The notes under the pieces: model-generated
The model's input: the letters and a program-made list of their open reading frames with translations, nothing else
The model's database searches: none
What the model was told of the DNA's origin: nothing
In this document: piece after piece, positions 32,011 through 56,535 of the stretch
How the letters are laid out: each line of letters opens with the position of its first letter
How positions within the stretch are numbered: position 1 is the stretch's first letter
Source of the DNA: Escherichia coli 042
GTDB lineage: Bacteria; Pseudomonadota; Gammaproteobacteria; Enterobacterales; Enterobacteriaceae
Strand: one strand, 5' to 3'
Length of the DNA stretch: 64,000 nt
NCBI RefSeq assembly: GCF_000027125.1
Contig: NC_017626.1
Made by a program: the position numbers and the translations under genes

Positions 32011-34320
32011 ATGGAGTTATGGATATTTATAGTAGCTATTTATTTGATTTATATTCTTTTTTTCAAAAAGAAGAAAACTAAGTCCGCGGGCTCTTATACT
32101 TCCGCTCCTGTGAAAGCACCACCTAAAGAATGGCTTGCTAACAACAAAAAAAATCAGTCTGTAATGCAAAACGAGGACAGCGAAGATGACAATCTGGCTA
32201 CGTTTACACTAAGTGGCGGGCGGAATGTCGAATACAGCATAACAGCCACTCAACGCCAGAATTTCTCAAAAACTACCGGTGCTTTGGCTCGTTGGATTTT
32301 TCCGGGAGAGATGATCACAGTCAGTGGGATAGAGGTTACCGGCGGTCACTTCTATCTTGGGCAGCGTATGAAACCTGCCGGGCATAACTCAGGCGGTTAT
32401 TATGATGGCAATAACGAGGCATCGCTAGTTGACGACACGCTTAAAATATACCCCACACCTTACATTTACGAAGATAGTTCATTAGGGTATTGGCCCAGTT
32501 TTTCCTCACTTTCACCTGAAGCTCGTGGTGCGTACCTGAGTTGGCTTGCCAGCGACAGATGCGACACTTCCTGCCCAATTGGTTACGTTTTCATTTATCT
32601 GTATGGTCTGGAAAGAAGGGCGCTTGTTGACAGCAGGGACAACAATATATCCGACGATGAGTTCTATTCTCTTTTCAAAGAGATCTGCCGTCTCAGATCG
32701 GTTTTCAATGAAAACCGATCTTTCCGGAATTACTCATCCCAGTTACTTGAAGCGATGTCCATTCTTCGTCCGAACGAAAATCTTGCAGCAGCTCTCAACG
32801 ATGATTCGGAGTTCAGCAATAGCATGCAGTTCAGGTTAATCCTGGCAAAGACTGTTGATACAGGAGCCCCGGTTCCAGCGGATCTGGCTCTGACGTGGGT
32901 GACAAACCATGCTGAATACTCATTACGAACCCCCGCCCGCCGCTGTGCGAAAGAATTTGCTGCACTATTTAAACGGCGTTACACCCTTAAATACGGTGAA
33001 GGGATGGTAGTGAAGCCGAATAAAGCGCGTCTGCGTTTAGATTACACGCCTGCAAGTCCCAGTTTGCGAGGTATTCGGCTTCCTGTTCCCGACTTGCCTG
33101 ATCCAGGTGCATTGAAAGGCCCTGTTCAGAAGCTTATGGCCATTGCCGATATATGCACAGGTGAACTGGATGCTTACAGTCGTTACCTTGGTAGAAAAGG
33201 TACTTCAGCAAATGATACCGCTGCAATTTTGTTGCTGCCTTCAGAAATCGTTAACGAAAGCGCAGAAAAAATATTAAGTACATTCAAACACTGGGCTGAT
33301 GACGCAATCCGCAGTAAGGGTGGGATAGTTTCAGTTGCTGACTACTGGTCACATATGAATGCCACCTGTCCGGCGAAGATCAATAAAAAAGAGGCCGACT
33401 TAATGCAAGCCTTTGCACAGAAAATGGGATACTGTCTGGCTCCTGACCCCTATCACCACCACGTAAAGGCAGATGTCGATGGTGTACTTGTTTTATTCCC
33501 TGCTGGTGAAAGAGGACGTTTCTCACCTTCTCCTGAATTTATCACAGCTGTATTGACGCTCCGATTAGGTTCGGTAGTCGCCTTGATTGACAATTCTCTC
33601 GATCAAGCCGAACAGAAAGTGCTTGAGAATGCCATCAACAACAATGCCAGCTTCAGCGATGATGAAAAGCGCTCTCTGCACGCATATTTAACGTGGCAGC
33701 TTCATACTCCGGCGAATATGACGGGAATGAAAAGCCGGATTGAATTACTCGGTGCAGCGGAAAAATCAGCTGTGGGTAAGGTTATCGTTAGTGTCGCTTG
33801 CTCTGACGGCAGAATTACGCCTGCCGAAATCAAACAGCTTGAGAAGATTTATACAAGCCTGGGACTGGATCCCTCATCCGTATCAAGCAATATCCATCAG
33901 CATTCCGCAACTGAAACTGCTCTCGTTTCATCTGTACCAGCTAATCAGTCGACGGCAGGGTTTACGCTGGATGCCAACGTACTTGCCCGCCACGAATCTG
34001 CCACTGATGATGTTCGTAAATTACTGAACTCAATTTTCACTGAAGAAGAACCAGAACAACCAGAAAGCGCTCCAGCCTCATTAACCGGGGAAGGGGGACT
34101 TGACTCCGCTCATAGCCAACTTTATCGCAGGTTGCTGGAGAAAGAACAATGGTCCAGAAAAGAGGCGACAGAGTTGTGTAGTAACTGGAACCTGATGCTC
34201 GGCGGTGCGCTTGAGGTGATTAACGATTGGTCCTATGCGGTGGTTGATGCACCAGTGCTGGAAGATGCTGATGATCACATTTGGATTGACCTGGAAATAG
34301 CCAAAGAATTAGAGGGTTAG
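32011..34320 (+). CDS. TerB-domain membrane-anchored protein (Shango SngA-like)
   Basis: 769 aa; N-terminal TM helix (MELWIFIVAIYLIYILFF), region with GYVFIYLYGLERR and a later ...VSVACSDGRITPAEIKQLEKIYTSLGLD block that I recognise as TerB-N / TerB-like; first gene of a tightly packed three-gene operon. Confidence 0.6.
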   Translation: MELWIFIVAIYLIYILFFKKKKTKSAGSYTSAPVKAPPKEWLANNKKNQSVMQNEDSEDDNLATFTLSGGRNVEYSITATQRQNFSKTTGALARWIFPGEMITVSGIEVTGGHFYLGQRMKPAGHNSGGYYDGNNEASLVDDTLKIYPTPYIYEDSSLGYWPSFSSLSPEARGAYLSWLASDRCDTSCPIGYVFIYLYGLERRALVDSRDNNISDDEFYSLFKEICRLRSVFNENRSFRNYSSQLLEAMSILRPNENLAAALNDDSEFSNSMQFRLILAKTVDTGAPVPADLALTWVTNHAEYSLRTPARRCAKEFAALFKRRYTLKYGEGMVVKPNKARLRLDYTPASPSLRGIRLPVPDLPDPGALKGPVQKLMAIADICTGELDAYSRYLGRKGTSANDTAAILLLPSEIVNESAEKILSTFKHWADDAIRSKGGIVSVADYWSHMNATCPAKINKKEADLMQAFAQKMGYCLAPDPYHHHVKADVDGVLVLFPAGERGRFSPSPEFITAVLTLRLGSVVALIDNSLDQAEQKVLENAINNNASFSDDEKRSLHAYLTWQLHTPANMTGMKSRIELLGAAEKSAVGKVIVSVACSDGRITPAEIKQLEKIYTSLGLDPSSVSSNIHQHSATETALVSSVPANQSTAGFTLDANVLARHESATDDVRKLLNSIFTEEEPEQPESAPASLTGEGGLDSAHSQLYRRLLEKEQWSRKEATELCSNWNLMLGGALEVINDWSYAVVDAPVLEDADDHIWIDLEIAKELEG

Positions 34321-34323
34321 TGA

Positions 34324-35640
34324 ATGTCTGTAACACGTATAAGAGTGAAAGAGCGCGACGCTATCATTCAGTCACTTAAGTCGGGAGTAACGCCAAGAAT
34401 AGGTATTCAGCATATCCAGGTTGGCCGCGTGAATGAGATAACCGCCCTCCATCAGGATATTGAACGGATTGCTGATGGCGGGGCAAGCTTCAGACTTATC
34501 ATTGGTGAGTACGGTTCCGGGAAAACATTCTTTTTAAGTGTTGTACGGTCTATTGCGTTAGAGAAGAAGCTGGTCACGGTCAGTGCAGACCTTTCTCCCG
34601 ACAGACGTATCCACTCATCGGGAGGTCAGGCTCGTAATCTCTACTCAGAGCTTATGAAAAATATGTCCACCAGAAACAAACCAGATGGCAATGCATTACT
34701 TAGCGTTGTGGAAAGGTTTGTTACTGAGGCAAGGAAGGAAGCTGATGCGAACGGCTCCCTGGTCTCATCCGTTATTCATAAACGCCTTGCTGCTTTGTCA
34801 GATATGGTGGGAGGATATGACTTTGCGAAGGTCATTGACGCATTCTGGCGCGGGCATGAGCAGGATAACGAAACCTTAAAATCCAATGCTATTCGCTGGT
34901 TGCGGGGCGAGTACACCACAAAAACTGATGCCCGTAATGATCTTGACGTCCGAACGATTATCTCAGACGCCTCGTTCTATGATTCTTTGAAGTTGATGAG
35001 CCTTTTTGTCCGTCAGGCAGGCTATGCCGGACTTTTAGTTAGCCTCGACGAGATGGTGAACCTCTTCAAGTTGAATAATACGCAAGCGAGAACGGCCAAC
35101 TACGAACAAATTTTGCGGATTCTGAATGACTGCCTGCAAGGCTCCGCCGAAAATATTGGTTTTATCCTCGGGGGGACGCCAGAATTTCTTTTCGATCCAC
35201 GTAAGGGGCTCTACAGCTATGAAGCGCTCCAGTCGCGTCTGGCAGAAAACCGATTCGCACAGAAAGCTGGCGTGATTGACTACTCGTCCCCCACGCTGCA
35301 TCTTGCCAGCCTCACTCCTGAGGAACTGTATATTTTACTGAAAAACCTTCGTCATGTTTATGCTGGTGGAGATCCCGTAAATTATCTGGTGCCAGATGAT
35401 GCTCTGACCGGGTTTCTGCATCACTGCAGCAAAACCATCGGAGATGCTTACTTTCGAACTCCCCGCAATACCATAAAAGGTTTTCTGGATATGCTGGCTG
35501 TGCTGGAACAAAACAGAACGATGAACTGGCAACCCCTCATTGAGGGGGTGGCGATTGAAGAAGACAAGCTCAGCGATATGGATGATGCCATTGTGGAGGA
35601 AAGTGATGACGATGATGGCCTGGCGAATTTCAGATTATGA
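34324..35640 (+). CDS. P-loop ATPase (Shango SngB-like)
   Basis: 438 aa; Walker A GEYGSGKTF, Walker B LLVSLDEM; starts 4 nt after upstream stop and overlaps downstream start. Confidence 0.65.
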   Translation: MSVTRIRVKERDAIIQSLKSGVTPRIGIQHIQVGRVNEITALHQDIERIADGGASFRLIIGEYGSGKTFFLSVVRSIALEKKLVTVSADLSPDRRIHSSGGQARNLYSELMKNMSTRNKPDGNALLSVVERFVTEARKEADANGSLVSSVIHKRLAALSDMVGGYDFAKVIDAFWRGHEQDNETLKSNAIRWLRGEYTTKTDARNDLDVRTIISDASFYDSLKLMSLFVRQAGYAGLLVSLDEMVNLFKLNNTQARTANYEQILRILNDCLQGSAENIGFILGGTPEFLFDPRKGLYSYEALQSRLAENRFAQKAGVIDYSSPTLHLASLTPEELYILLKNLRHVYAGGDPVNYLVPDDALTGFLHHCSKTIGDAYFRTPRNTIKGFLDMLAVLEQNRTMNWQPLIEGVAIEEDKLSDMDDAIVEESDDDDGLANFRL

Positions 35641-37835
35641 GTAGTGCCTACAATAGTCTTGATCCCCGTGTCCGTAAGTGGGTTTATAAGCAGGGCTGGT
35701 CATCCTTAAGGCCCTTGCAGGAAAGCTCTATTCCGGCAATTTTAGCCCGTGATCGTGATGTACTAATTAGTGCAGGTACAGCTGCGGGTAAAACAGAGGC
35801 TTTCTTTCTTCCTGCCTGTTCAGCGATTGCAGATCTCACTGGTGGATTTGGCATTATCTATATCAGTCCATTGAAGGCATTAATTAACGATCAACACCGT
35901 CGTCTTGAGAGTCTTGGTGAAGCCCTGGAAATGCAAGTGACGCCCTGGCACGGGGATGTACCACAAAGCAAAAAGAAGAAAGCACGGACAACCCCTTCTG
36001 GCATCTTACTTATCACACCTGAATCACTTGAGTCTTTGCTCATAAACTCATTGGGTTGGCTCAAACAGGCGTTTTCTTCTGTGGCATACATTGTTATTGA
36101 TGAGTTCCATGCTTTTATTGGCTCAGAGCGTGGTATACAGCTGCTTTCTCTGCTTAACAGAATTGACCATGTGCTGGGACGCCAGTTGAATCCAGTTCCC
36201 CGTGTCGCGTTGAGTGCCACACTGGGAGAGCTGGAAAAAGTACCAGAACTATTGCGCCCGGATAAGAGATTACCTTGTGAAACGGTAACAGACAGTAATA
36301 GCAAAGCCACAATACAGGTTCAGGTTAAAGGTTATCTTGAGCGGGTGCCCGAAAAAGGAAAAGAGCTCCAGAGCTCTGCTGAACAGCTCGTCTGCGCGGA
36401 TATTTTCAGGCTCTGCCGTGGCGATTCCCACCTAGTCTTTGCTAACAGTCGAAAGCGTACTGAAAGCATAGCGGCAACACTGAGCGACATGTGTGAAGCA
36501 AATGTCGTTCCTAATGAATTCTTTCCTCATCATGGTTCCCTTGCAAGGGAGTTGCGTGAGGCGCTTGAAGCCCGACTGCAGAAAGGGAATTTGCCCACAA
36601 CCGCTGTTTGTACAATGACTCTGGAGCTGGGTATTGATATTGGTAAGGTGCAGTCTGTCATACAAGTGACACCTCCGCATTCTGTTTCCAGTCTGCGTCA
36701 ACGCATGGGACGTTCAGGGCGGCGCGATTCCCCATCGGTGCTGAGAATGTTAATTACTGAACCTGAACTTACCGCAACCAGCAGCATTGTGGATCATTTA
36801 CGGCTGCAGTTGGTTCAGGCGATGGCAATGATCAGGTTGATGATCTCTAAGCGCTGGTTCGAGCCTGCAGATATCCGGCAGAAACATTACTCCACACTAC
36901 TACACCAGATCTTGGCTATTACTGCGCAATGGGGAGGTGTTCGTGCCGATCAGCTCTGGTCACAACTTTGCCAGACAGGTCCGTTCCGGAATGTGGATAT
37001 AAATGACTTCAAAAGTCTGCTTAAACATATGGGGACATGTGGCCTGCTCACTCAACTAACCAGCGGTGAAATAGTTGTCGGGGCTGAGGGGGAGAAACTG
37101 ACTAATCACTACACGTTTTATACCGTATTCAATACACCTGAGGAGTTTCGCATTGTAACGGGAAACCGAACTCTTGGCACAGTGCCTGTAGACTCCCCAC
37201 TTTTGCCGGAGCAGCACATCATCTTCGGCGGACGGCGCTGGAAAGTGACAGAGATCGAGGTTGAAAAAAAGGTTATCTATGTTGAGACGACTAAAGGCGG
37301 TCAGCCGCCACTATTCAGTGGTAGCGGGATGTCTGTTCATGATGTTGTTCGCCAGGAAATGCTCACTATCTACAGGGAAAATGATTACCGTATCGCGGTA
37401 GGCAACAAGAGAGTCGATTATGCTGATGCCGCAGCCAGAAGCCTCTTCGCGGAAGGAAGTGACAACTTCCAACGCTACAATCTACAAAATGACTGTTTTA
37501 TTGCCAGTGGTCAGAACTGCTACGTGATCCCGTGGATGGGGGATAAAATTGTCAATACAATTACGTCCCTGCTTATACGTTGTGGCTTTAAAGCCAGTTC
37601 ATTTGCAGGTGTGATAGAGGTAGAGGACTCAGGCGTTGCCTCTGTCCAGCGTGCACTTAAGAAAATGCTATTGTCGGGGCTACCTTCAGAGTTTGAGCTT
37701 GCTGCAGTTGTTCCCGACAAGTATCTGGATAAATATGACGAGTATTTACCAGAGACTTTGCTTGCTAAAGGGTATGGGGCACAGGCGTATGATATAGAAG
37801 GAACGTGCATCTGGCTGCAGAAACACCTTCAGTAG
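35637..37835 (+). CDS. DEAD/DEAH-box (Lhr-like SF2) helicase (Shango SngC-like)
   Basis: 732 aa; motif I AGTAAGKTEAF, motif II VIDEFH, motif III SAT, motif VI MGRSGRR; ATGA start/stop overlap with upstream ATPase. Confidence 0.7.
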   Translation: MSSAYNSLDPRVRKWVYKQGWSSLRPLQESSIPAILARDRDVLISAGTAAGKTEAFFLPACSAIADLTGGFGIIYISPLKALINDQHRRLESLGEALEMQVTPWHGDVPQSKKKKARTTPSGILLITPESLESLLINSLGWLKQAFSSVAYIVIDEFHAFIGSERGIQLLSLLNRIDHVLGRQLNPVPRVALSATLGELEKVPELLRPDKRLPCETVTDSNSKATIQVQVKGYLERVPEKGKELQSSAEQLVCADIFRLCRGDSHLVFANSRKRTESIAATLSDMCEANVVPNEFFPHHGSLARELREALEARLQKGNLPTTAVCTMTLELGIDIGKVQSVIQVTPPHSVSSLRQRMGRSGRRDSPSVLRMLITEPELTATSSIVDHLRLQLVQAMAMIRLMISKRWFEPADIRQKHYSTLLHQILAITAQWGGVRADQLWSQLCQTGPFRNVDINDFKSLLKHMGTCGLLTQLTSGEIVVGAEGEKLTNHYTFYTVFNTPEEFRIVTGNRTLGTVPVDSPLLPEQHIIFGGRRWKVTEIEVEKKVIYVETTKGGQPPLFSGSGMSVHDVVRQEMLTIYRENDYRIAVGNKRVDYADAAARSLFAEGSDNFQRYNLQNDCFIASGQNCYVIPWMGDKIVNTITSLLIRCGFKASSFAGVIEVEDSGVASVQRALKKMLLSGLPSEFELAAVVPDKYLDKYDEYLPETLLAKGYGAQAYDIEGTCIWLQKHLQ

Positions 37836-37851
37836 ACTGGATATGTAGTCA

Positions 37852-37884
37852 GGGTATAAATAAGTATTTATACCCTTATTTTTT
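37852..37884. terminator. hairpin terminator after helicase gene
   Basis: gggtataaata-agt-atttataccc followed by ttatttttt. Confidence 0.5.
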
Positions 37885-38270
37885 ACTTACCTGTGGACTT
37901 ACTTGGCTTTAATCCCGGAGTATTGCCAGGAGTATCTTTATTATCGCGTCGGCGTTGATCCGGTTTTCCTGTTGACTTAGCAATTGGTTTTGGACCTGGT
38001 TTTAGACCCATGATAGTTATCCTTCGAGATGTAAGAGGAATGCCCTCAACATTGGTATATTCTATACTGAGAAATTTTTCAATGGGAATGTTCAACGGCC
38101 GAATGATTAACTCGATATTGTGAGCAATGTCTTTTTTTGGCACAGAGCGAACCGTTAGATTGCGCGTATTTTTATGGAAGGAGATCATCCAATAACGGTT
38201 ATTCACCGATCTCCTTTATGGTAATACGAACCTGTTTTTTTAATATATAGAAAAATTACTCCGACATGTT

Positions 38271-38915
38271 TTATCTTTTTGAAATCAGGACATTTACCAA
38301 CTCACTTAAAACTCTCTTTTGTTCTTCATCCTGAAGATATTGAATCCGGAATTTAATCTCTTCTGCAACCCGCCTTGTATCGGACTCATTAAGTATTTTT
38401 GTTATTCGCTGTCTCTGATGTTCAGGCTGGTCTTCCATATTTCGTAAAACCAGATGAAATAATATATCATAAAGTGCGCAATGCCATGAATAACCATCAT
38501 TGGTTAGAATAAGCTCCCAAACCCGCTCCTGTTCGGCAATAAGCTGCAGAACAAAGGATTCAACCTGTTCTGATTGTCCGGGGACAACCCGGTATAGCGG
38601 CGCAATCACAGCAAAAAACAGTTCATTTAGCCAGGATTCCGCCTCTTTCTCGCTCCTGAAAGATGGACAGTTCTGTATTCTTCGTTCGTATTCACGGGTA
38701 ACCTGCTCCGGAATATCCTCCGGCGGTGTCAGCCACTTATTCCTGAGCAATATACTGGTTGACGGATGGCAGCAGGCTATTTCAGCAATAATTTCACGTA
38801 ATGCCTCCGGGCTGAATTTCTTCAGCTGATTGTAGTGCTCCCGGGTAAAACCATGATCATCGCATAAAAGTTGCCATGTCATTGATATACTGTTTGCCAT
38901 TCCTTTCTTCATCAT
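38271..38915 (-). CDS. hypothetical protein (fourth gene of IbrAB-like operon)
   Basis: 214-aa ORF co-oriented, 20 nt downstream of the 102-aa ORF; no recognisable motif. Confidence 0.4.
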   Translation of the reverse strand: MMKKGMANSISMTWQLLCDDHGFTREHYNQLKKFSPEALREIIAEIACCHPSTSILLRNKWLTPPEDIPEQVTREYERRIQNCPSFRSEKEAESWLNELFFAVIAPLYRVVPGQSEQVESFVLQLIAEQERVWELILTNDGYSWHCALYDILFHLVLRNMEDQPEHQRQRITKILNESDTRRVAEEIKFRIQYLQDEEQKRVLSELVNVLISKR

Positions 38916-38935
38916 TAATACCTGTTACCTGAATA

Positions 38936-39244
38936 TCAACAGACCGGTGTACCTTTTCTGAATACCTCCCCGGACGGACTGGCAATCCCCATTCGCCTCA
39001 GCGTGGCATCTGCAGCTTTCGCCACTTCGCTGATATCCAGCTTTTCAGGTAGCGGCGGGGACGATATCTGCGCCAGGCAATAATTCCTGCGCAACAACAA
39101 CCACTCCCGTTGTGCTTCTGTACATTCAACATTTCCCATAACAAAAAGCCAGCGGGCGGAAGCTCTGCGCCAGCAACCCGCAGCCTCCAGCTTCTGTGCA
39201 ACCATGTCTTCCACGACTTCCGGGGTACTCTTTTTCCTGCTCAA
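38936..39244 (-). CDS. hypothetical protein (third gene of IbrAB-like operon)
   Basis: 102-aa ORF 39 nt downstream of ParB-like gene, same strand. Confidence 0.35.
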   Translation of the reverse strand: MSRKKSTPEVVEDMVAQKLEAAGCWRRASARWLFVMGNVECTEAQREWLLLRRNYCLAQISSPPLPEKLDISEVAKAADATLRRMGIASPSGEVFRKGTPVC

Positions 39245-39283
39245 AACATTAACTCACTGAAATAATATACATATATGACGGTC

Positions 39284-39922
39284 TCAGCGAACCGTCCATG
39301 CCGGACTGAAATCCTCTTCCAGAAACAGCTCCGTCAGCCCGCTAATCTGTTTCAACCTGAGAACTTCATCCTGGTCCATACCCAGCTCCGTACCAATACG
39401 TTCATCCGTCCAGCCCAGCCGCGACAGGTCCCTGACAATATCAGACATTGAAGTTATCTGGTGCTTCCCCCTGGCCCGGTTATGTCTAATGGTTGCAGCA
39501 ATACGTGAGGCCTGTCCCTTTCTTTCCGGATTAATACAGGTCACTGGCAACCAGCCCTTCAGGCGTTTTCCCGTACCTGCTTCCCTGCCCAGTAATTGAC
39601 GATGAAAACCATCCACGACCAGATAATGCTCCTTCTCTTCCGAGACAACCACAGGCTGCGTGAACCCATCCTGCTCCAGTGAATGTTTCAGCAGTTTCTT
39701 CTCACCCGGCGCCATGACATTGGGGTTATAATCGTTGGCCACCACCTCATCTGCTTTCACCCACAGCACACAGTCCACAGGCTCCTGTGCAAATGGACTG
39801 ACCTCATGAAGCACCCTGCGCAGATGATTCAGGGCCTGTATGGCCTCTTCTTCTGGTCGTTCCTGGCTGAAGTACTGACGAATCATGTTGCTCAGTATCT
39901 CCGGTGTCACAGAATCCCCCAT
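39284..39922 (-). CDS. ibrB: ParB/Srx-like nuclease-domain protein (IbrB-like)
   Basis: 212 aa; ParB N-terminal-type motif region VVVDGFHRQLLGREAG...IRHNRARGKHQ; start overlaps upstream gene by 16 nt. Confidence 0.6.
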   Translation of the reverse strand: MGDSVTPEILSNMIRQYFSQERPEEEAIQALNHLRRVLHEVSPFAQEPVDCVLWVKADEVVANDYNPNVMAPGEKKLLKHSLEQDGFTQPVVVSEEKEHYLVVDGFHRQLLGREAGTGKRLKGWLPVTCINPERKGQASRIAATIRHNRARGKHQITSMSDIVRDLSRLGWTDERIGTELGMDQDEVLRLKQISGLTELFLEEDFSPAWTVR

Positions 39923-41139
39923 TCCTTCCTCCTTTCTTTCATACGCTGCAGATAACGTTCATAGTGCCGGGGTTTGTTCGGACTGAAGGAGAGGGTACGG
40001 CACCAGAAATCATTCTTTATGAGAGTCTTACAGATACGTCGCCAGGACGGAATATCCCGGCTCCCCAAGTCATTCTCCTGTTCATCCGGGATGTCATCCG
40101 GGAAGCCCCGCGTCTGATACCAGCGCAGATAGACAGCTATCTTGTTGCGGTAATGTTCTGCCGTTCTTTCCGGCATCACATCCAGCAGAAACATCGCATA
40201 GCTGCGCCAGGTATGATGGGCTGGTTTTGATATGCGCTTACGCAGGGCAAAATAAGCCCCGCTTTCATTGGCATAAAGTGCCCCGCTGGCAGCCCCTGAC
40301 ACCCGCTCACACATCCTGGCCCAGGTTTCCGGCTCCAGAACATGGTAAAGCCACAGTCCCTTACGTTGTTCAGGACCAAAAGGTTCACAGACACGCATGT
40401 TGCGTAACGGTACGCCGGCACGGTACATCAGGTCATACAGGGGATTGTAGATGGCACGGGTTCTGGTGTGATATATCCAGATATCACGAGTTTTCCAGTC
40501 ATACAGCGGATACATGGTGTAGTAAAACCCTTCAGGCGATGCCGTGGTCCAGGGCTTATCATCGGCGTATCTCAGTTTGCGCTGGGATACCAGTCCCATG
40601 AACCGGTTAAGGGACTCATCCGCACGGACACCGGTCAGTACTGCCACACCACATTTATTGTCTGCAAACCAGGAAGAAAATGCCGGAACAAATTCTTCAA
40701 ACGTCATGGCATACCGGTAAAAGGGAAAATACGCCATATCTGTAATGGCCCCCTCCGGTGGCTGGCGAACCCACTTCACACCAGACTCCCAGCATATCCA
40801 CTCCGGCTGAAACTGAGAAACACCGTTTACCGTGGTCAGGGGAAGTGCCACCCAGTAAAAGGTTTCCGTCACATCATGGTACATTTCCCGCATCTTCTGA
40901 ATATGTTCAATGGTGCACTGGTACTGAGCCTCCCAGTCAATGAACAGTACAGAGAAACGACGTTTTTTCCTGCGGGCCACATCAGCCAAAAGATGGAAAA
41001 GCACGGTGGAATCTTTACCACCGGAAAAAGAGAGACAAACTGATGGAAATGTTTCAAAAATCCACTCAATACGAGCAATTGCTGCACGCAGAACATTCTC
41101 TCCAGTAAGGACTTTCTCCGTTAAAAAATTATCATTCAT
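39907..41139 (-). CDS. ibrA: PAPS-reductase-like (PP-loop ATP pyrophosphatase) protein with C-terminal extension (IbrA-like)
   Basis: 410 aa; PP-loop SFSGGKDSTVLFHL near N-terminus, long C-terminal domain; gene pair architecture matches IbrA/IbrB (YbdN/YbdM-like) as I recall it. Confidence 0.65.
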   Translation of the reverse strand: MNDNFLTEKVLTGENVLRAAIARIEWIFETFPSVCLSFSGGKDSTVLFHLLADVARRKKRRFSVLFIDWEAQYQCTIEHIQKMREMYHDVTETFYWVALPLTTVNGVSQFQPEWICWESGVKWVRQPPEGAITDMAYFPFYRYAMTFEEFVPAFSSWFADNKCGVAVLTGVRADESLNRFMGLVSQRKLRYADDKPWTTASPEGFYYTMYPLYDWKTRDIWIYHTRTRAIYNPLYDLMYRAGVPLRNMRVCEPFGPEQRKGLWLYHVLEPETWARMCERVSGAASGALYANESGAYFALRKRISKPAHHTWRSYAMFLLDVMPERTAEHYRNKIAVYLRWYQTRGFPDDIPDEQENDLGSRDIPSWRRICKTLIKNDFWCRTLSFSPNKPRHYERYLQRMKERRKEWGIL

Positions 41140-41279
41140 TTATTTTTACTTTATGCAAAAGAAACCTGTTTATGCTTTCAACATATAGCAACAAACATTA
41201 AATGACGTTTAATTAGCCACTACTAAAATTGCTTACTTTCATCCTGATGAACATATAAAACATATTACAAACATATTTA

Positions 41280-41987
41280 TCAATAAAGAATCTTTATTGA
41301 TGATACTGGCACTGTAACAATCCCATTGAGAGAACGATTTATAACCACCCACTCATGTGGTTCAACCAACCAGGAGTTTACATGTTTTGAATCAATAAAA
41401 TCATGGCAATATAATATATCTGAAGCAGGTATATCCAACTCCAGTTTAACACGTCCGTGATATTCATCCGCATCATTAAAAGAATTCAATATATCCATCT
41501 CAAAAGAAATCACATCCTCCCCTCTTATCTCTGCTGTTTCTTTTAACTCAGCAATCGTATCTGCATACCTGCCATTAAGTTTCCTGCCTAACTGGATAGT
41601 TGTGATTTTCTTTTCGTTGCAGCATCGCTGAGTATGTTCATATATAGCCATCACTTCCTGGCAAATACAATCAACTTCTATATCACTCAAAGAATTATAT
41701 ATGTCCATAACTTTTCTCTCATAATGCAAAAAAAGATTAAATATACGATAATGAGAGAGCAAATCAGAATTTGTTACTTTCGTTAAGAATAAAGTTAATA
41801 AAACATAACCTACCTGTTTACTACCATTAAACCCAATAAAATCACTTCTCACATCTCCTTTCAATCTACCAGTTCCGATACAACGAGCTAACAATTCACT
41901 CCTGACATTATATTTACCATTCATATTCACCATACTATTCGAAACAACAGACGAACATCCAAAAGCGCTTAAACACTCCACAAACAA
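41280..41987 (-). CDS. hypothetical protein (AT-rich orphan)
   Basis: 235-aa ORF in a visibly A+T-rich segment; no recognisable motif. Confidence 0.4.
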   Translation of the reverse strand: MFVECLSAFGCSSVVSNSMVNMNGKYNVRSELLARCIGTGRLKGDVRSDFIGFNGSKQVGYVLLTLFLTKVTNSDLLSHYRIFNLFLHYERKVMDIYNSLSDIEVDCICQEVMAIYEHTQRCCNEKKITTIQLGRKLNGRYADTIAELKETAEIRGEDVISFEMDILNSFNDADEYHGRVKLELDIPASDILYCHDFIDSKHVNSWLVEPHEWVVINRSLNGIVTVPVSSIKILY

Positions 41988-42040
41988 ACTATCTCACCGA
42001 ATAAATTGCAACACTCCCCTTACCCCACATCCTAAAGGCT

Positions 42041-42964
42041 TTATATAAAACAGTAAAAGTGAATCAGCTTAACAAATGCATCTTTCATTTGTTTTTGCTG
42101 CTGCTCGCTTCCATTCTGGTTGCGGACTTCACCATAGTGACACAACTGTTCTTCTGCCAGGATATGCCGGTTAAAAGCCTGCATGATGCCAGACACCTCC
42201 GTTTTCAGCTCACTGACCGTCATGTATTTTCCCCGCTGTTCATCCGGACGGTTCAGGCGCTCAGCCAACAGCTGTAAGCGGGTCATGCCTTCGTTCCAGC
42301 CAGTCATCGCCTCTTCCGGGAGCGCACGACTCCTTGCACTCTTCTGCCAGTTATCCACCATTTCCTGAACACGAGGATTGTCGGGGAAAAGTACCATCAG
42401 TTGCTGCAGCAATTGCACACTGCGTTGCAGGTTGTATGCCGGGGGGAATTCTGTCAGTCGCGTTATCTGCTGACCGGAAAGGGTTATCCACTCTGACGCA
42501 TGATTTAACAGTGTTCTGCTGAGCTGCATCATCTGGTCTGCTGAAAGCACATCCGGTGAGGGTGTCAGCAGCGCCCTGAGTTGCTGCTCCGCCGGTGATG
42601 GCTGTGTCAGAAACTGCCATCCCGGAATGGCCACGCAGACCGCCAGCAATGCCGTACAGACACCTGTAACAAACGTTTTCAGAAACGTGAGCGGGGATTT
42701 TTGAAGGAAGAGTGTGGGCTCTGTTTTTGTTTCAGAAACAACATACACCAGACGGGAGTGCGGCAGGGTCTGATGTTCCTGCACATCCGGAGCTTCAAGC
42801 CTGAGTGCCTGCGCCAGTAGCGTTACCGGAGACGATACTTCCCCCTGCACAGGCTGGTTCTCCAGGCGGGTGATATATCCCTTCACCATGGCTTCCGGTA
42901 AAGCCACTTTACTGCTCTGTTTAAGTTCGTGCCAAGCCTGCGTATTTTCATGGAAGGAGATCAC
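42041..42964 (-). CDS. hypothetical membrane protein (possible C-terminal portion of an ImpA/VasL-like protein)
   Basis: 307 aa with central TM helix (LTFLKTFVTGVCTALLAVCVAIPGW); start overlaps the upstream ImpA-N-like ORF by 17 nt in another frame. Confidence 0.4.
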   Translation of the reverse strand: MISFHENTQAWHELKQSSKVALPEAMVKGYITRLENQPVQGEVSSPVTLLAQALRLEAPDVQEHQTLPHSRLVYVVSETKTEPTLFLQKSPLTFLKTFVTGVCTALLAVCVAIPGWQFLTQPSPAEQQLRALLTPSPDVLSADQMMQLSRTLLNHASEWITLSGQQITRLTEFPPAYNLQRSVQLLQQLMVLFPDNPRVQEMVDNWQKSARSRALPEEAMTGWNEGMTRLQLLAERLNRPDEQRGKYMTVSELKTEVSGIMQAFNRHILAEEQLCHYGEVRNQNGSEQQQKQMKDAFVKLIHFYCFI

Positions 42965-43388
42965 TCAGTGTCTTCAGGAATGTTTCGGTCTGATACAGCA
43001 GGGGCAGGTTGTCACGGTTATCCGGAGGCATGGCCCGGAGCGTTTTTTGCAGACGGTTGAACAGACCGGTAATAATTTCCAGCCGGGAGTGTGTATTCAG
43101 CGGCCACATCACTGACCAGTGATGCCGGGTCAGCGCAGCAATCAGAGCCAGCCCTTCATTCAGACCACTTAACCCTGTTGTATGCATCCGGGCAATGGTG
43201 TACCAGGATGCCGTCTGTAATTCCACGCCATTGTGTTCATACAGACGCAGGCAGAGCGTTTCCACGTAACGCCAGTCCACATCAGGGCGTGCCGGGTGGG
43301 TCAGTTTGCTGATTTCATCGCGCAGGGCAGCATAATCCGGTAATGACCGGGGGTCACCACCGGTTTTCAGTTTCACTTCAGAAGTCAT
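42948..43388 (-). CDS. ImpA-N-domain-like protein (TssA/VasL N-terminal-like)
   Basis: 146 aa; GGDPRSLPDYAALRDEISKL...DVDWRYVETLCLRLY...ASWYTIA...GLSGLNEGLALIAAL...W pattern resembles the ImpA N-terminal domain of T6SS TssA/VasL proteins (from memory). Confidence 0.4.
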   Translation of the reverse strand: MTSEVKLKTGGDPRSLPDYAALRDEISKLTHPARPDVDWRYVETLCLRLYEHNGVELQTASWYTIARMHTTGLSGLNEGLALIAALTRHHWSVMWPLNTHSRLEIITGLFNRLQKTLRAMPPDNRDNLPLLYQTETFLKTLSDLLP

Positions 43389-43781
43389 CGGCAGATTCAG
43401 TGTTTAGGTATTAAACCATTGTTAATTATAGGGAGAGAGTCAGTGCGATACCGTTACCCAGGAAAGGTATTCCACTGCGCAGATGATTGCCGGTGTCACA
43501 TCCCACCGCCGTTTCAGAACCGGTAACAGCTCATTAAGGTTTCTGATATAACGCTCAGTGAAAACCGGACTGATTACAGGTAATGGTGATATGACAGGTA
43601 TCGTTGCCAATATACACGGCTTCCAGAGGTATGAATCTTACATTCCAGTACCAGGAGTACGGCGAGTGGTTCAGATGAAAAAGACGCATCTGAATATCGT
43701 TAAATAACGGGTTCATGGCGAATTAAATAAACCTGATAATAACAGTATGGGGAAAGTCCGGAATAAAGAAATGGTCCGGTA

Positions 43782-45569
<1,788 letters not shown>

Positions 45570-50002: not shown

Positions 50003-50224
50003 CTAGGATGATAATCCTATACCTGAGGGAGACATGGAGGGACTAACCGTCGCAGTCGTTGCCCATGAATGTACTTTATCACCTATATAAGCCCCTGCAA
50101 TAGAACCAAATCCCGGGCTAATAAACGTACCTGCAAGTGAACCAATAGCAATTAATTCTGCCTGCCCGTCATTCCCGTCACCTCCAGATATTTGTTTTAT
50201 TTCATTTTCAGATAGTTTTCTCAT
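50003..50224 (-). CDS. mcmA: microcin M precursor (class IIb siderophore-microcin)
   Basis: MRKLSENEIKQISGG double-glycine leader and Ser-rich C-terminus ...MSPSGIGLSS; recognised as microcin M precursor; ATG at 50224 with aaggtg RBS; the track ORF extends in-frame upstream from a TTG. Confidence 0.8.
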   Translation of the reverse strand: MRKLSENEIKQISGGDGNDGQAELIAIGSLAGTFISPGFGSIAGAYIGDKVHSWATTATVSPSMSPSGIGLSS

Positions 50225-50285
50225 TTCAACACCTTCGCTATAAAATTTGTGAAGAAGTAAAAATTCACGTTTAACCACAACGATA

Positions 50286-50441
50286 AAAATGTAACTACAA
50301 GTGATAAAAAAACATATATAGATTAAAAAAATTATATCTATAGTAATAACTAAGATATAATGACACCGGAATATAAAAGAACAGATAATTGATAACAAAA
50401 GCAATCACTGTTATTTTTATATCCTTCTTAACCTCCCCCAT
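50286..50441 (-). CDS. candidate microcin M immunity peptide (51 aa, hydrophobic)
   Basis: Hand-translated ORF MGEVKKDIKITVIAFVINYLFFYIPVSLYLSYYYRYNFFNLYMFFYHL between mchF and mcmA with ggag RBS; below the track cutoff; the known immunity protein length was not verified. Confidence 0.35.
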
Positions 50442-50476
50442 CGACAAAACTCCTTACAAAGTTACACCAGTGGATT

Positions 50477-52573
50477 TTAAATAGAAATAATCCTGTCAAC
50501 AGTTCTCAACGTAGTTTCTCTGTGTGCAATAATCACCCGGGTGATATTCATTTTTTTTATGGCAGCATTCACGAAACGTTCACTTTCTGTATCAAGAGAA
50601 CTTGTAGCCTCATCCATAAATAATATTCCAGGTTTCCGGTATAAAGCTCGGGCAATGAATATACGCTGTTTTTGACCGCCGGAAAGACCTTCCCCCAGTT
50701 CACCTATTAACGTTTCATACCCCATTGGCATTTTCATTATCACATCATGAATATGACTTGCTCTGGCACATTCTGTCATCCATTCGTCGTCTGTTTCTTC
50801 TGCAAACCCACAGATATTTTCACGAATTGATCCTGAAAATAGCCGGTCGTCCTGCATAACACAGGCTATCATACGGTGATAATTATTTATTCCAAGTTGA
50901 CGTATATCCGTGCCATTAACCAGTACTTTTCCACTATCTGGTTCAAACAGTCCACATAATACTTTCATTAATGTGGTTTTTCCGGCACCGGAGGCACCAG
51001 TTATAGCCACACTTTCTCCCGGAGCCACAGACAAATTCAGACCACTGAATACCTGTGCTGACTGGCTGTCATACCGGTAGCTTAAATCAGTGGTTTCCAG
51101 TGAAACCGGGCTCATGTCAGCAACGATTTCAATTTCCGGTTTCTTTTCTTCCTTTTCATGTAGTGCAATATCTGCAATGCGCTCATTATGCAGACTCATT
51201 ATTCTCAGTTGAAGAAGAAAACTGGTCAGCGAAGCAACCCGATCCGAAAACTGCCCACGAAAAGAACCAAATGCCACAAACATCCCTATTGTCATCTGAT
51301 TATCGATCACAAGGCTTGCACCCAGCCATAAAATCGCCACCTGATCACAGGCGGCAACAAAAGTATTTATCCCCCCGAAGAGCAAATCCATCTTGGTTAA
51401 CTTAATACCTGAATTGATCGCATCTATTTTCAGGTTAAGCCAGTGTGTTCCCCGGATCCCAGCCATACCTTGGATTTTTACCGTGGCAATACCATACAGG
51501 CTTTCCATAAAATAGGAGCTGGCCCGGGCCCCCCTGACAAGAGTTTCTTCCGATATTTGCCGGTAATAGCCGTATGTCACCAGACGAATAAGAACGTAAA
51601 CCATGGTAAAACCGAGCACTATCCAGGTAAGATATCCTCCATATAACAGCATCATCACAAAAACACCCACAACCATAATACTGTCCATGATTGCCCCAAC
51701 CACACAGGTGGTAAAGGTGGCCCTCAAAGTGTCAAGGGAGCCAAAACGCGACTGGATATCACCTAATTTACGGCGTTCAAAAAACGCCAGCGGCAGTCTG
51801 AGAAGATGGTTAAACAGACCCGACTGCCACTGTATATTGATGAGCGTGCTCATAACCAGTGAGGACCATGCACGCAGCATACTCACCGCGGCCCTGAGCA
51901 ATATAAAGAACATCAGGCCAGCAGAAATAAGCGTCAGCAGCCCTCTGTCCCCCGCCGGAATCGCATGATCCATAACCAGCTGAGTCCCCACCGGCATTAC
52001 CAGATTGATTGCTTCAATTACAACTGACAGACAGAAAATTTTCGCCAGTGTTCTTTTAATACCGTAAATACTGTTAATCAGTGAACGGAGACTTATGCGG
52101 ATCTGCTGGGTTTCCGCCAGGAATTCACTTCCAGGCCAGACCTCAAGTGCAATGCCCGTAAAATACCGGCTCATTTCCTCCCGACCGAGATATCTTCTGC
52201 CTCTGGCCGGATCATGCAGTACATAACGGTTACGCTTTACGCTGACCAGCACGACAAAGTGACTGAAATCCCAGTGGAGAATACACGGCATTTTGAGGGC
52301 ACCAAGTTCATCCAGCTCCAGTGAAAGAGCCCGGGTGACCATCCCCAGCTGCTCCGCTATTCCATTGATTCCTGCAAGGTTTGCTCCACGGGCCGAGAGA
52401 TTAAACTTCCGGCGAAGAGATATCAGGTCAATATTCTTACCAAAATGACCGCATATCATTGCCAGGCAGGCCAGTCCACATTCAGCGGTCTCCGTCTGAT
52501 GAATAACCGGAACACGACGTCGCCAGCGCATATCAAGCTGATTTATAATTTGTCTGAAACTCCCGTTAGTCAT
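50477..52573 (-). CDS. mchF: microcin ABC exporter with N-terminal C39 peptidase domain (CvaB homolog)
   Basis: Track ORF 50477..52591; from [42 protein letters not shown] closely matches CvaB/MchF; Walker [10 protein letters not shown], signature LSGGQ. Confidence 0.85.
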
Positions 52574-53840
52574 TGAGCGGTCCTGTTGCACTGTGTTTCA
52601 TGTCATAGAAAGGAGAAAGCATCCACTGGTAAATACGCCTTTTTTCCAGAAATAGTGTACTTTCGGCTTTCATTCCATTTTCCAGAGGGAGGTATTTTTC
52701 GTCATATCTGATAATCTGCTTTTCAGGCATCGCAATGACTTTATACCAGGGAACAGAGGCGCCCGGCGTATTCTGTGGTGCACCCTTATAGGTCAACATT
52801 TCCTGTGTTGACGCAGGAGTCCTGGATATAGTTTTAACCGTAGCAGAGAACTGCCCAAATTTTTCTGCCGGAAAGGCTTCATAACGAATATTCACTTTGT
52901 CACCAGCCGAAATATAAGGAACAGCATCATTTGGGACCCAGAGAATAAGATAATAGTTTTCAATGTTCTCAGGAATAACCTGCAGAAGGCTGTCTCCGGT
53001 ATTGACCATTTGCCCGACAGTGACACTCAGGGAGTCAACTTTCCCGTCAGTCAACGCCCGGATAATAATTTCGCCCTCCACATCAGTGTTAACCAGTTCT
53101 TTCTGTAACTCGTACCGTTGCAGTTCCATCTGGTAGATACGGTTATCAAAATCTGCAGCCTGAGTCTGAATCTGACTCTCCAGAGTGGTTATCTGCAGGG
53201 CATTCTGTTCGTTCTGTCCGCTCAGGCTGAGAAGATTGTTTTGTTGCTGATAATATAATGCCACCTGGTTAGTTAACTGATCTTTATTAATCAGCCCTTT
53301 TGCCTGATAGTTTCTGTAATTCTCCATATTGTTTTTCATTATTTTTATCCCTTCCTCTGCACGCTGTATAATATCTGATGAGCGACGAAACGCATCTGTG
53401 TATTGCAGACGTTGTTTTTCCAGGGTATCTAACGTTATTTTTTTACTTTCTTCCAGACGGGAAATAATGTTGTCCACACGAACCAGCTGATTTTCTATAT
53501 CCCGCCGATGATTATCAGTGACAATACCACTACGTGTACTTTTACTGATGTCAATCAGATAAACAGGATCCCCTTTTTTTATCAACTGCCCTTCATGAAC
53601 AAATTGCCTGACAACAAATCCCTGTACACCTGAATATATATTGACAGCTCTTGGCCAGGTTGTGACCTCACCACTGACATTAACACGGCGGCTATAGGTA
53701 CCAACAATAATGAACATCAGAAATGCCGTAATAAACACAATGCTTCCCAGCATGATTAACCATAGTGGTATTCCGGGAAGTAATATTGCCCGTCCCTGCC
53801 ACTTCATTTTTCTGTTTTCTAAAGCATCCTGACGAAACAA
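52566..53840 (-). CDS. mchE: microcin secretion membrane fusion protein (CvaA/HlyD family)
   Basis: 424 aa; [40 protein letters not shown] matches CvaA/MchE N-terminus; overlaps mchF start. Confidence 0.85.
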
Positions 53841-53992
53841 AATAGCTCCTCTTACTCACACTTTTCCTGTAATACCTTCACTGATTAACCGAAACGCTAT
53901 AATCAAAGCCAGAAAATACAGAGTCCTGTCAAAATAGTATCAGCGATGCATTTACCCCGTAATTTACAATTATCTCTGTATCTTCAGAGGTA

Positions 53993-54445
53993 CTACGTTT
54001 TATGCAGCCGCTCAGGGATGTATGTCACAATTTTCTTTCGCCTGCTTAACCATCGTACTTCTCCTTCCCCCCATGGCTGAAGCTGTATGAGATAGTCAAT
54101 AACTTTTCGACCAAAGCCTGGTTTACAACAGAAATCCAGGATCCAGATCCTTCCATCTTCATTCCATTCAGACGGATGCAACCTGAATTCTGGATCCCTG
54201 AGCAGGCGCGCTTCCGTATCAGCCTCAAGATATGCCCAGGTTATATACGCCAGTGGAAAACCTCGTGAATCAAACAGGAATTTAATCTGATTATGCTGTA
54301 TCGCATATTCAGTCCAGTATTGAATGGTTAACACCGGATACAGACTGTAATTACGATTGTAGAGCATACAACTGACCGCAAAACCTATCTGTTCATAAAC
54401 AGTCCATTCATCTTTTCCTCTGATGGTTTCCCTTATATAAGACAT
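53993..54445 (-). CDS. mchD: microcin maturation protein (MchD/MceI-like)
   Basis: 150-aa ORF between mchC and mchE in the canonical mchCDEF order. Confidence 0.55.
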   Translation of the reverse strand: MSYIRETIRGKDEWTVYEQIGFAVSCMLYNRNYSLYPVLTIQYWTEYAIQHNQIKFLFDSRGFPLAYITWAYLEADTEARLLRDPEFRLHPSEWNEDGRIWILDFCCKPGFGRKVIDYLIQLQPWGEGEVRWLSRRKKIVTYIPERLHKT

Positions 54446-54470
54446 GATTACTATTTCCCTTATATATTTA

Positions 54471-56021
54471 TTACACTGTGTTTCTTATCGGTTCAAGATA
54501 TCCAAATGCATCTCTGGAAAACTTAAGCATAAAATTTTTCATATCAGAAATTGCTTCTTGTAAAAAAAGGGGATCATCGCCATGATTATCCAGCAGGATG
54601 GCAATTTTTTCGCACATATTCTCTTTCCTCAGCTCTTCCCTGGGTTGCAGCCTTTTCATGGTATGATGTTCAATTTCTTTCAGGAGTAATGAAGCATTTA
54701 TCTGACGTCTGGTACTGCCTTGCGTCAGCCAGTGGATAGTCTGGGAAAAACACTGTTGTGCAACGGTGAAATAAACATCATTCTTGATGCTACTATTCAG
54801 TGCCTGCTTTTGATTATGCCTATGATGGATTAGCGTCACAACCAACTTTTGCAATGGTGAACCATCCTGATTGACAATATCTTGGGCATGTGATTTCTCG
54901 CAGTATTTATTGAGTAATGCAACAAAACTGTTAACCAGTTGTTTCAATATATCAGGTATCTCTTTTTGTGTTATAAATTCTCCAGGAATACCCAACAGTT
55001 CTAGATAACAGTAATAACATGCTTCATGAAAAGTTTTCTGAAATATCTCCTCAACCTTCAAACGGGCTGCAAGAGTGAAGTCAGGGTCAAACATATATTT
55101 TCCGATATACAAGCAGAGATCAGACAGCCCTTGCATAAGTACCATCGGTTCTTTTGCCAGTTCAGCTAATCTTAGTTTATACCCAAAATCAGCTGGGGAA
55201 TCTCCCGGAAACAGACAACTGAGTCCGTTAAAATCCATTAATCTGCCATCCATTGCAATATTAGAAGGAGAAGTTGTCAATCTCAGGAAACGTGTTCGAC
55301 AAAATGCCATTTGCCAGGCCTCACGACGTGCCAGTTCACATAATCCCTCAATGCAATAAATCCGGGGATCAGTTCGTGCTTCAGCATCAATTTCTTCCGG
55401 TGGTACAGGTAGATATCCTGGCAGCTTGTGGATCACAGATCTAACCCGACAGGCATCGTGAATTAACTGACTGGAATACTCCGGTTTTACTTGGAAGTAT
55501 GGTGCCCGTTCAAAATGCGCCGGGCGAACAACAGGCTCACGTACCAACAGGGCTCTTCGTGATTTCATACCGGAGCGCTCAAATGCCTTTTCAGTATAGA
55601 GATCTGTAAGTAAAACCGCCCGAACCCGCACAGCACTATAAGGTAATATTTGAGCCAGTACTTCTCCCCACAAAGCCTCATATATTGCATGAACAGCGCC
55701 GAGTGCACCATTAGAATGACGTTCGTCAGTACCTTCACCAACCAACGGATTACTTCCTATTCCTTTAACCTGGTAGTTACCATCAAACCCACAACGTGCA
55801 CCACCTCCATTACGCTGAATACCACTGCCACCATAGCGCTCTGCATGGAACACTTTGGCAGAAGCCGTACTGTCAGGATCGATAATATAACTGCAGGCAT
55901 TTTGCAGCTCGCCTGGATTTCTGACATCCTCTGCACACCAGATTAATGAGGACTTGATCTGCCTGGCAGTGAAAGGCACCAGGTTTTCATTCAGTTCAGA
56001 AAGTGAACACTGATGACTCAT
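54471..56021 (-). CDS. mchC: microcin maturation protein (MchC/MceJ-like)
   Basis: 516-aa ORF immediately downstream of mchB, size and position as for MchC. Confidence 0.55.
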   Translation of the reverse strand: MSHQCSLSELNENLVPFTARQIKSSLIWCAEDVRNPGELQNACSYIIDPDSTASAKVFHAERYGGSGIQRNGGGARCGFDGNYQVKGIGSNPLVGEGTDERHSNGALGAVHAIYEALWGEVLAQILPYSAVRVRAVLLTDLYTEKAFERSGMKSRRALLVREPVVRPAHFERAPYFQVKPEYSSQLIHDACRVRSVIHKLPGYLPVPPEEIDAEARTDPRIYCIEGLCELARREAWQMAFCRTRFLRLTTSPSNIAMDGRLMDFNGLSCLFPGDSPADFGYKLRLAELAKEPMVLMQGLSDLCLYIGKYMFDPDFTLAARLKVEEIFQKTFHEACYYCYLELLGIPGEFITQKEIPDILKQLVNSFVALLNKYCEKSHAQDIVNQDGSPLQKLVVTLIHHRHNQKQALNSSIKNDVYFTVAQQCFSQTIHWLTQGSTRRQINASLLLKEIEHHTMKRLQPREELRKENMCEKIAILLDNHGDDPLFLQEAISDMKNFMLKFSRDAFGYLEPIRNTV

Positions 56022-56291
56022 CTGGCAGTATTCTCCGTTTTAATTTTCATAAAAGAGTGTTCATAAAAGAGCAAGTAAGTGTCCTGACAGCTTCTTCCTT
56101 ATTACAGTAAAACTCTATTAATTACACATAAATTAATAATTATTTATCAACGACTGTAAATCATATCTTCATCAGTAAAGTGTTGAACATAAAAACACAC
56201 TTATAAATGGATCTTCTATCTGCTTTAAACGAAAGGGATATATTTTACAGGCACTATCGAAAAAGTGCCTGTAAAATAAATAAAATTATAA

Positions 56292-56519: not shown

Positions 56520-56535
56520 ATAAACTCCATCATAT

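Follow-up and report, generated by a model that had tools for sequence, protein, structure and literature searches.

TagA is built from an ImpA_N domain, a TM segment and a VasL domain (PMC6745524). By the account given there, TagA of E. coli binds TssA and stabilises the fully extended T6SS sheath, at whose distal end it sits; a structure that probably contains TagA fastens this end to the membrane in E. coli, and deletion of tagA leads to over-polymerisation, bending and breaking of sheaths, and to weaker killing (PMC6745524). Binding to TssA and the holding of the sheath end at the membrane are also reported for TagA of V. cholerae (PMC6745524).

The locus described here lies in a 64,000-nt stretch of DNA from E. 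coli 042, the whole of which was analysed and is referred to as the window. The experimentally studied TagA of E. coli 042 carries a locus tag that we take to be EC042_4550. The region in question very probably represents a tagA (TsmA, VasL-type TssA-like) pseudogene, the 3' remnant of a T6SS cluster in a pheV-tRNA island, with its frame broken by an IS21-family, ISEc12-like element.

Reading frames and domains

The two reading frames and the features recognised within ORF2 are as follows.

42948..43388, minus strand: ORF1, 5' fragment of tagA; 146 aa, ATG start
42041..42964, minus strand: ORF2, 3' fragment of tagA; 307 aa, GTG start
42626..42682, minus strand: hydrophobic helix LKTFVTGVCTALLAVCVAI, predicted membrane anchor (Kyte-Doolittle); ORF2 residues 95-113
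42059..42475, minus strand: VasL domain (PF12486); ORF2 residues 164-302

A sequence-only reading of this DNA had likened the 146-aa ORF to an ImpA N-terminal domain, and the ImpA_N search on which that view depended returned a match: PF06812 covers ORF1 residues 8-109 (window 43062..43367) with an E-value of 1.4e-18 in Pfam. VasL (PF12486) is matched by ORF2 residues 164-302 with an E-value of 5.2e-29, and both Pfam matches are far beyond chance. The central TM helix that had been noted in the 307-aa ORF is also found, as LKTFVTGVCTALLAVCVAI at residues 95-113 has a Kyte-Doolittle mean of 2.08, the best of any 19-residue window of ORF2; the helix is called by hydropathy calculation only, over 19 residues. 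As the same reading had stated, ORF2 overlaps the end of ORF1 by 17 nt in another frame; the nucleotides common to both are 42948..42964 and, read from the sequence, the frame of ORF2 is +1 relative to that of ORF1.

ORF1 retains 143 native residues, the whole ImpA_N domain among them, and its last three codons (LLP) and TGA stop belong to the IS-derived insert described below. Codons 1-8 of ORF2 (V/M-ISFHENT) come mostly from the same insert, the GTG start and the next base being native; codons 9-11 (QAW) are an altered form of native LAR, and the sequence is native from HELKQ onward. The native portion of ORF2 comprises a linker, the hydrophobic helix and the VasL domain, and the native residues lost at the break number only four (TLAR). 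Inspection of the 20 nt upstream of the ORF2 GTG revealed no GGAG, GAGG or AGGA. PGAP leaves the 307-aa ORF2 uncalled and gives in its place a VasL fragment of 163 aa with an internal ATG as its start.

Intact homologs and the nearest allele

When a conceptual fusion of ORF1 and ORF2 was used as the query, 1,489 homologs were matched; the best 120 of these 1,489, from E. coli and Salmonella, are mostly single proteins with a length of 443-465 aa and both Pfam domains, in agreement with the suggestion that the combined length of about 450 aa is that of VasL-type proteins. Homologs are overwhelmingly single ORFs, so the possibility that they always occur as two separate genes falls away. The closest intact allele among the best 120 of the 1,489 is a 443-aa protein (P0001), whose locus (L004) matches the window in context, with a NERD/UvrD helicase upstream and, downstream, a hypothetical ORF (about 214 aa) followed by a gene for a DUF3440 PAPS-reductase (IbrA). 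The DNA of the window tagA and that of L004 differ by one synonymous SNP and one block, and are otherwise identical. At the site of the block, every other allele, those of Salmonella and those linked to a T6SS included, reads SDTLARHELKQ (LSDTLARHELKQ); the uninterrupted form of tagA is ancestral, because all other alleles, distant ones too, read through the site.

In TagA all three modules (ImpA_N, TM and VasL) are carried on one polypeptide; in the window they are not, as a +16-nt lesion splits the gene. Judged by sequence, ORF1 and ORF2 are together a single tagA gene, that of the T6SS sheath membrane anchor. The choice that had been left between a frameshifted relic and a repurposed two-gene unit can be settled in favour of the relic, because the intact allele differs at the break and at one SNP only, and nothing was found in support of a two-gene unit. 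RefSeq pseudo-fragments of alleles with 92% identity were also considered as a sign of widespread decay, an idea that was dropped; the gene at one such locus (L003) runs uninterrupted over 454 codons, so its fragmentation is an artefact of annotation.

The lesion and its IS21-family origin

The change at the break and its overlap with an IS end are placed as follows.

42932..42961, minus strand: lesion, in which a 30-nt block ATCTCCTTCCATGAAAATACGCAGGCTTGG replaces the 14 nt ACACACTGGCCCGG of the intact allele (comparison with L004)
42938..42967, minus strand: match to the outermost 30 nt of ISEc12, 29/30 (E 2.6e-9 within the window)

A frameshift had been proposed at 42948..42964, and a break is indeed present there, but it is no simple 1-nt shift. 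Seven native nt (CACACTG) have given way to 23 nt of an IS21-family terminus, accompanied by two adjacent substitutions; the net gain is 16 nt, by which the downstream two thirds of the gene move into the +1 frame. The heptamer at 42961-42967 (TGAGTGA), shared with native tagA, constitutes a microhomology, and positions 42938-42960 are the 23 foreign nt. The insert together with the 7 native nt matches the ISEc12 end in 29 of the 30 positions, which identifies the frameshift as a solo IS-end scar, with no complete element.

The core of the lesion, TCTCCTTCCATGAAAATACG, recurs in several of the loci examined and once more in the window; in a permissive search it was found at 11,029 places in 3,324 of the 5,426 complete E. 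coli genomes, on chromosomes as well as plasmids. In two examples, of which one is on a chromosome and the other on a plasmid, the motif is situated just outside the istA start of the IS21-family element ISEc12. These two independent ISEc12 insertions agree up to ...TGAGTGATCTCCTTTCATGAAAATACGCAG / ...GTTATTGAGTGATCTCCTTTCATGAAAATACGCAG and part at the very next base, so the end of ...GTTATTGAGTGATCTCCTTTCATGAAAATACGCAG is the terminus of the IS. This terminus was found at 5,605 places in 1,967 genomes, with a median of 3 per genome carrying any. The window holds a second short ISEc12 remnant at 38164-38196, apart from which the rest of the 2.5-kb ISEc12 is absent from it; the marks of a complete element (istA/istB, a second inverted repeat and a recognisable target-site duplication) were not found at the scar.

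In the proposed course of events, an ISEc12-like element would have inserted between CACACT and GGCCCGG of tagA, and nearly all of the IS would then have been deleted through recombination of the TGAGTGA of tagA with the same heptamer in the IS, 23 nt in from its end. This route of insertion followed by deletion, which is drawn from the scar alone, is the most likely one. It does not account for the change of GGCCCGG to GGCTTGG (CC to TT) beside the scar, and none of the 5,426 complete genomes (0/5,426) carries a full IS in tagA at the scar site.

Other sources for the inserted sequence were looked for. No second copy of the lesion 29-mer, with up to 3 mismatches allowed, is present in the window, and an Rfam scan of window positions 37500-43800 gave no match. 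The VasL-domain gene in a T6SS remnant at aspV of strain H3 was rejected as a gene-conversion donor, as it has no usable DNA similarity. A small-gene leader or an anti-Shine-Dalgarno hairpin had also been entertained, the motif being located in the 5' end of a 107-aa ORF at 38165; this was dropped, since the two ISEc12 insertions identify the motif as an IS terminus.

T6SS origin and decay of the cluster

The neighbourhood upstream of tagA contains the following features.

42090..43716, minus strand: orf68-tagA, DNA homology to the 3' end of T6SS clusters, 88% to that of E. coli (L007) and 81% to that of Salmonella (L016)
43440..43716, minus strand: relic of orf68, the gene that precedes tagA in intact clusters; frameshifted, with tblastn pieces 43558-43617 and 43443-43565 in different frames
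43782..45569, minus strand: NERD + UvrD-type helicase gene, neighbour of tagA; apparently inserted cargo, no T6SS gene

Complete T6SS clusters end in homologs of 77-88% protein identity (P0044, P0061 and P0099, the last from Salmonella); the gene order in these clusters is TssF-TssG-TssJ (SciN)-VgrG-effector/immunity-TssE (gp25)-orf68-tagA and orf68 encodes about 68-126 aa. The homology of the window to a T6SS cluster is confined to 42090-43716. It had been remarked that the window holds no other T6SS genes, and two approaches agree with this: TssG, TssJ/SciN, VgrG and TssE of a related cluster have no tblastn match in the window, and in a genome that is 99.9% identical, RefSeq annotates no T6SS genes between window positions 18000 and 64000. 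The linkage to a T6SS cluster that would be expected of TagA is therefore lacking here.

The helicase is absent from intact T6SS clusters. At two loci (L020 and L013) it is positioned between the tssE gene, or a fragment of it, and tagA, and in such decayed clusters it looks like an insertion of cargo. One arrangement (L020/L021) consists of an IS66 fragment, TssG-TssJ-TssE, YdcA, T5orf172, the NERD/UvrD helicase and tagA, past which lie an OLD-family nuclease and, in turn, the genes found downstream in the window (the 214-aa ORF, IbrA-like, IbrB-like and PerC); in another (L013-L015) the T6SS part is reduced to a gp25 (TssE) fragment ahead of the helicase and tagA. Both arrangements represent intermediate stages in the decay of the cluster. 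An IS3-family integrase fragment is located just past the helicase in the window, and a 235-aa ORF downstream of tagA has no match in PADLOC or NCBIfam. The orphan tagA is thus what survives of the 3' end of the cluster, whose T6SS genes eroded while defence-type cargo entered around the last of them.

Genomic setting and population spread

Positions 30000-54999 of the window are 99.9% identical to strain H3 (NZ_CP028732), where the counterpart belongs to a genomic island adjoining tRNA-Phe and an integrase gene; speC and yqgA, core genes close by, presumably mark this as the pheV locus. The T6SS remnant of H3 at aspV, mentioned above, is separate and truncated, and is made up of a truncated TssM, a different VasL-domain gene and Hcp.

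The spread of the scar was surveyed in the 5,426 complete E. coli genomes with the 80-nt junction as the probe. The junction turned up in 322 genomes (in 321 with at least 99% identity), and its exact recurrence confirms the frameshift as real rather than an error of assembly. It occurs in at least two island contexts, one next to the LEE region (SLK172) and one in the tRNA-Phe island (H3). In 125 genomes the junction is uninterrupted; the alleles concerned all fall into other groups, and some are truncated remnants. The scar allele is almost invariant across hundreds of genomes and both of its halves are otherwise undamaged; recent spread of the island would predict such near-invariance, with which residual function is also compatible. 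One scar allele has gained a later lesion, an extra IS2 at the same spot in strain S1-JOR-02-A, and later lesions in other genomes (H43, H38 and H57) take the form of truncation, a 1-nt deletion and insertion of a group II intron. Pairwise dN/dS values for members of the family, helicase-linked orphan copies included, range from 0.2 to 0.37. The intact orphan tagA thus appears to have been constrained for most of its history, a measure that does not separate the time spent in the cluster from the time spent outside it.

Alternative explanations

That faulty sequencing or assembly of this one record produced the frameshift has next to no probability; it can be held up as a general possibility and nothing more, but the identical 80-nt junction comes from differing laboratories, hosts and island contexts, and the change is an exchange of 30 nt for 14 nt with no homopolymer slip. 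Extremely unlikely as well is programmed +1 ribosomal frameshifting in the 17-nt overlap, by which full-length TagA would be restored. The two frames do overlap and differ by +1, and a shift within GTGATCTCCTTCCATGA would give a continuous protein; against this, no shift is required in the intact alleles or any other homolog, all of which are without GTGATCTCCTTCCATGA, the overlap is IS-derived, it shows no resemblance to the known +1 frameshift site of prfB (CUU-UGA), and no Shine-Dalgarno-like stimulator precedes it. A different origin for the lesion, namely that the 23-nt patch was copied without any IS insertion through a template switch or gene conversion primed by TGAGTGA, with an ISEc12 end elsewhere as the template, is doubtful. 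The lack of a full-IS intermediate among the 5,426 genomes would suit it, as would the start of the patch exactly at the 7-nt microhomology and the plentiful supply of ISEc12 ends as templates (median 3 places per carrying genome). The patch, however, stops exactly at the IS terminus, which is expected of a transposition junction, whereas a template switch would have had to stop there by chance; in either case the gene would end up as a pseudogene, with no difference in functional outcome.

The split itself could be functional if ORF1, as a soluble ImpA_N protein, and ORF2, as a TM-VasL protein, were both made, the latter by termination-reinitiation at the overlapping GTG, and together formed a non-covalent TagA or took on a new role, for example with the NERD/UvrD helicase. 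The halves are intact but for the four junction residues, the allele is common (322 genomes), helicase and tagA are repeatedly neighbours in alleles whose DNA identity is only 84%, and the helicase matches the PADLOC candidate model C3a187. The probability of a functional split is nonetheless very low, as the break is an IS scar and no evolved junction, the GTG lacks a Shine-Dalgarno sequence, the nearest relatives that share the gene context have a single ORF, and scar alleles have acquired further disruptions; moreover, TagA itself has no PADLOC match, and the helicase, which is missing from intact T6SS clusters, resembles a cargo insertion in decayed ones. It is equally hard to credit that orphan tagA beside the helicase has been kept for a role outside its original cluster, and that the ImpA_N fragment of the scar allele could still modulate TssA-dependent assembly of the sheath. 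This idea is kept alive because intact orphans are common, because of the dN/dS values given above, and because the helicase adjacency spans the 84% identical alleles; if it were true, the orphan tagA might serve a T6SS elsewhere in the genome or tether the helicase to the membrane in a defence module.

Predicted consequences of the break and meaning of the locus

Under the preferred reading, that of a tagA pseudogene, no more would be made than a free ImpA_N fragment in the cytoplasm and, perhaps, a TM-VasL fragment whose translation is poorly initiated. The cap-binding domain and the membrane anchor would be on separate chains and the sheath-holding function would be lost; this loss is proposed because the function requires the cap-binding N-terminus to be joined to the membrane anchor. 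In TagA the ImpA_N domain contacts the TssA cap at the far end of the extended sheath, and the hydrophobic segment fixes that end to the membrane. The split should therefore abolish TagA function, in a place where no T6SS is close by in any case.

A T6SS accessory gene that has been inactivated by an IS scar within a mosaic island is ordinary, and is covered by existing knowledge together with domain-level annotation; the finding matters little outside annotation. It portrays pheV-type islands of E. coli in which a T6SS cluster is eroding from the 5' side and defence-type cargo (the NERD/UvrD helicase, T5orf172 and the OLD nuclease) is piling up around the last T6SS gene. It also accounts for confusing RefSeq calls in hundreds of genomes, where an "ImpA family N-terminal domain-containing protein", a "VasL domain-containing protein" and a spurious "POTRA" fragment are recorded. 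Scar alleles would be better annotated as one tagA pseudogene with an IS21-family scar, and related intact genes, which now stand as pseudo-fragments in pipeline annotation, merit single tagA calls.

Comparison with known systems

The window gene shares an ImpA_N domain with core TssA, and the NCBIfam TssA models are matched with an E-value of 1e-23. The scores fall far below the cut-offs, however, at 83.8 against 230.1 bits for TIGR03362 and 42.3 against 160.9 bits for TIGR03363. The match to the TssA models is confined to the N-terminal region, and a chain of the TssA structure PDB 6hs5 is matched (E 7e-5) over residues 36-122, the ImpA_N region only; the C-terminal part of the window gene consists of the TM segment and VasL, and not of the TssA oligomerisation domain. 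By these comparisons the window gene is not a core TssA. In PADLOC, the intact TagA homolog (P0001) has no match and the neighbouring helicase matches its candidate model with an E-value of 4.5e-140.

As to the lesion, the likeness to solo terminal scars of the IS21 family (ISEc12) lies in the 29/30 agreement over the outermost 30 nt, which ends exactly at the IS boundary; compared with a complete ISEc12, only 23 foreign nt are left in the scar. The closest likeness of the gene as a whole is to TagA/TsmA, the class B TssA-like protein of enteroaggregative E. coli that is also represented by VCA0121 ('VasL') of V. cholerae. The window gene differs from it in being divided between two frames by the IS scar and in having no T6SS core gene nearby; it resembles it in the combination of ImpA_N, a hydrophobic segment and VasL, and in that close homologs of the window gene occupy the last position of the T6SS cluster.

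The lesion in tagA and its annotation

Immediately after the 23 nt derived from the terminus of the IS21-family element ISEc12, the window reads GCTTGG (42932-42937, minus strand), as opposed to GCCCGG in every intact allele, and this tandem CC-to-TT change is unaccounted for by a model of insertion and deletion. The same scar allele in strain S1-JOR-02-A (L028, 2263-3491) carries an IS2 insertion a few bases upstream of the IS21 scar, which shows that the tagA pseudogene has gone on decaying at the same spot.

The in-frame segment encoding the hydrophobic helix of TagA (42584-42712, minus strand) is labeled in RefSeq as a 'POTRA domain-containing protein' pseudogene; no POTRA domain was found by Pfam in ORF2, the longer of the two tagA ORFs. 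In strain 300709 (L003, 8001-9365), a fully intact tagA of 454 codons has been cut by the annotation pipeline into three pseudo-fragments, and in strain C227-11 the tagA junction is uninterrupted and bears no annotated feature at all; the gene of C227-11 looks truncated.

Genes flanking tagA

The surrounding island holds the following features.

Features near tagA (window coordinates)
43782-45569, minus strand: NERD and UvrD-type helicase, 595 aa (PADLOC candidate model C3a187, E 4.5e-140)
41280-41987, minus strand: ORF adjoining tagA on its downstream side, listed at 235 aa (214 aa in RefSeq)
38936-41139, minus strand: genes for a regulator of the PerC family, an IbrB-like protein of ParB/Srx type and an IbrA-like PAPS-reductase (DUF3440)
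38164-38196: another remnant of an IS21-family end, the second in the window, which matches the terminus of ISEc12 at 29/33 and overlaps a 107-aa ORF (37883..38206, minus strand) at the ORF's 5' end
~50003-56700: microcin cluster of the same island, as annotated by RefSeq in strain H3, which is 99.9% identical

The NERD/UvrD helicase immediately precedes tagA in L003 and in L004, and in the decayed T6SS clusters L020 and L013 it lies between the tssE gene or its fragment and tagA. The intact clusters L007, L016 and L022 are without it, and the helicase appears to be cargo inserted at the 3' end of the T6SS cluster. Downstream of tagA, the 235/214-aa ORF is conserved in L004, L005 and L020 and has no match in Pfam, NCBIfam or PADLOC. 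In several islands (L004, L005, L020), tagA is accompanied by the PerC-family, IbrB-like and IbrA-like genes; IbrA weakly matches BrxP in PADLOC (E 2.6e-7).

Further IS21-family remnants

The second remnant encodes residues YWMISFHKNTR of the 107-aa ORF, a RefSeq 'hypothetical protein', and pairs as an inverted repeat with AAAGGAGATCG, located just upstream of the GTG of this ORF; the start of the ORF therefore lies within IS debris. A related end remnant is found in L007-L011 (~5975-6063), downstream of VgrG and directly before a colicin/pyocin-type DNase domain, in T6SS clusters that are otherwise intact. The DNase domain appears to be truncated in its N-terminus at the remnant, as if this effector gene had been struck by the same kind of IS as tagA.

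Other systems of the island and genome

At aspV, strain H3 carries a second T6SS remnant (L019, 14241-17414), unrelated to that of the window. It comprises a truncated TssM/IcmF joined to part of an Rhs protein, a VasL-domain protein of 450 aa, and Hcp; given this remnant, two or more T6SS loci appear to have been lost from H3. By the annotation of H3, the microcin cluster contains a colicin V-family bacteriocin, mchF with an HlyD-type exporter, and microcin H47 mchB/mchI.

Three further genes of the island match PADLOC Shango models.

Matches to Shango models (within 32011-37835, plus strand)
SngA: TerB_N protein, 769 aa, E 9e-100
SngB: BrxD-like ATPase, 438 aa, E 4e-186
SngC: DEAD helicase, 732 aa, E 1e-277

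From these matches, the three genes appear to make up a full Shango system, a known anti-phage defence, in the same island as tagA.
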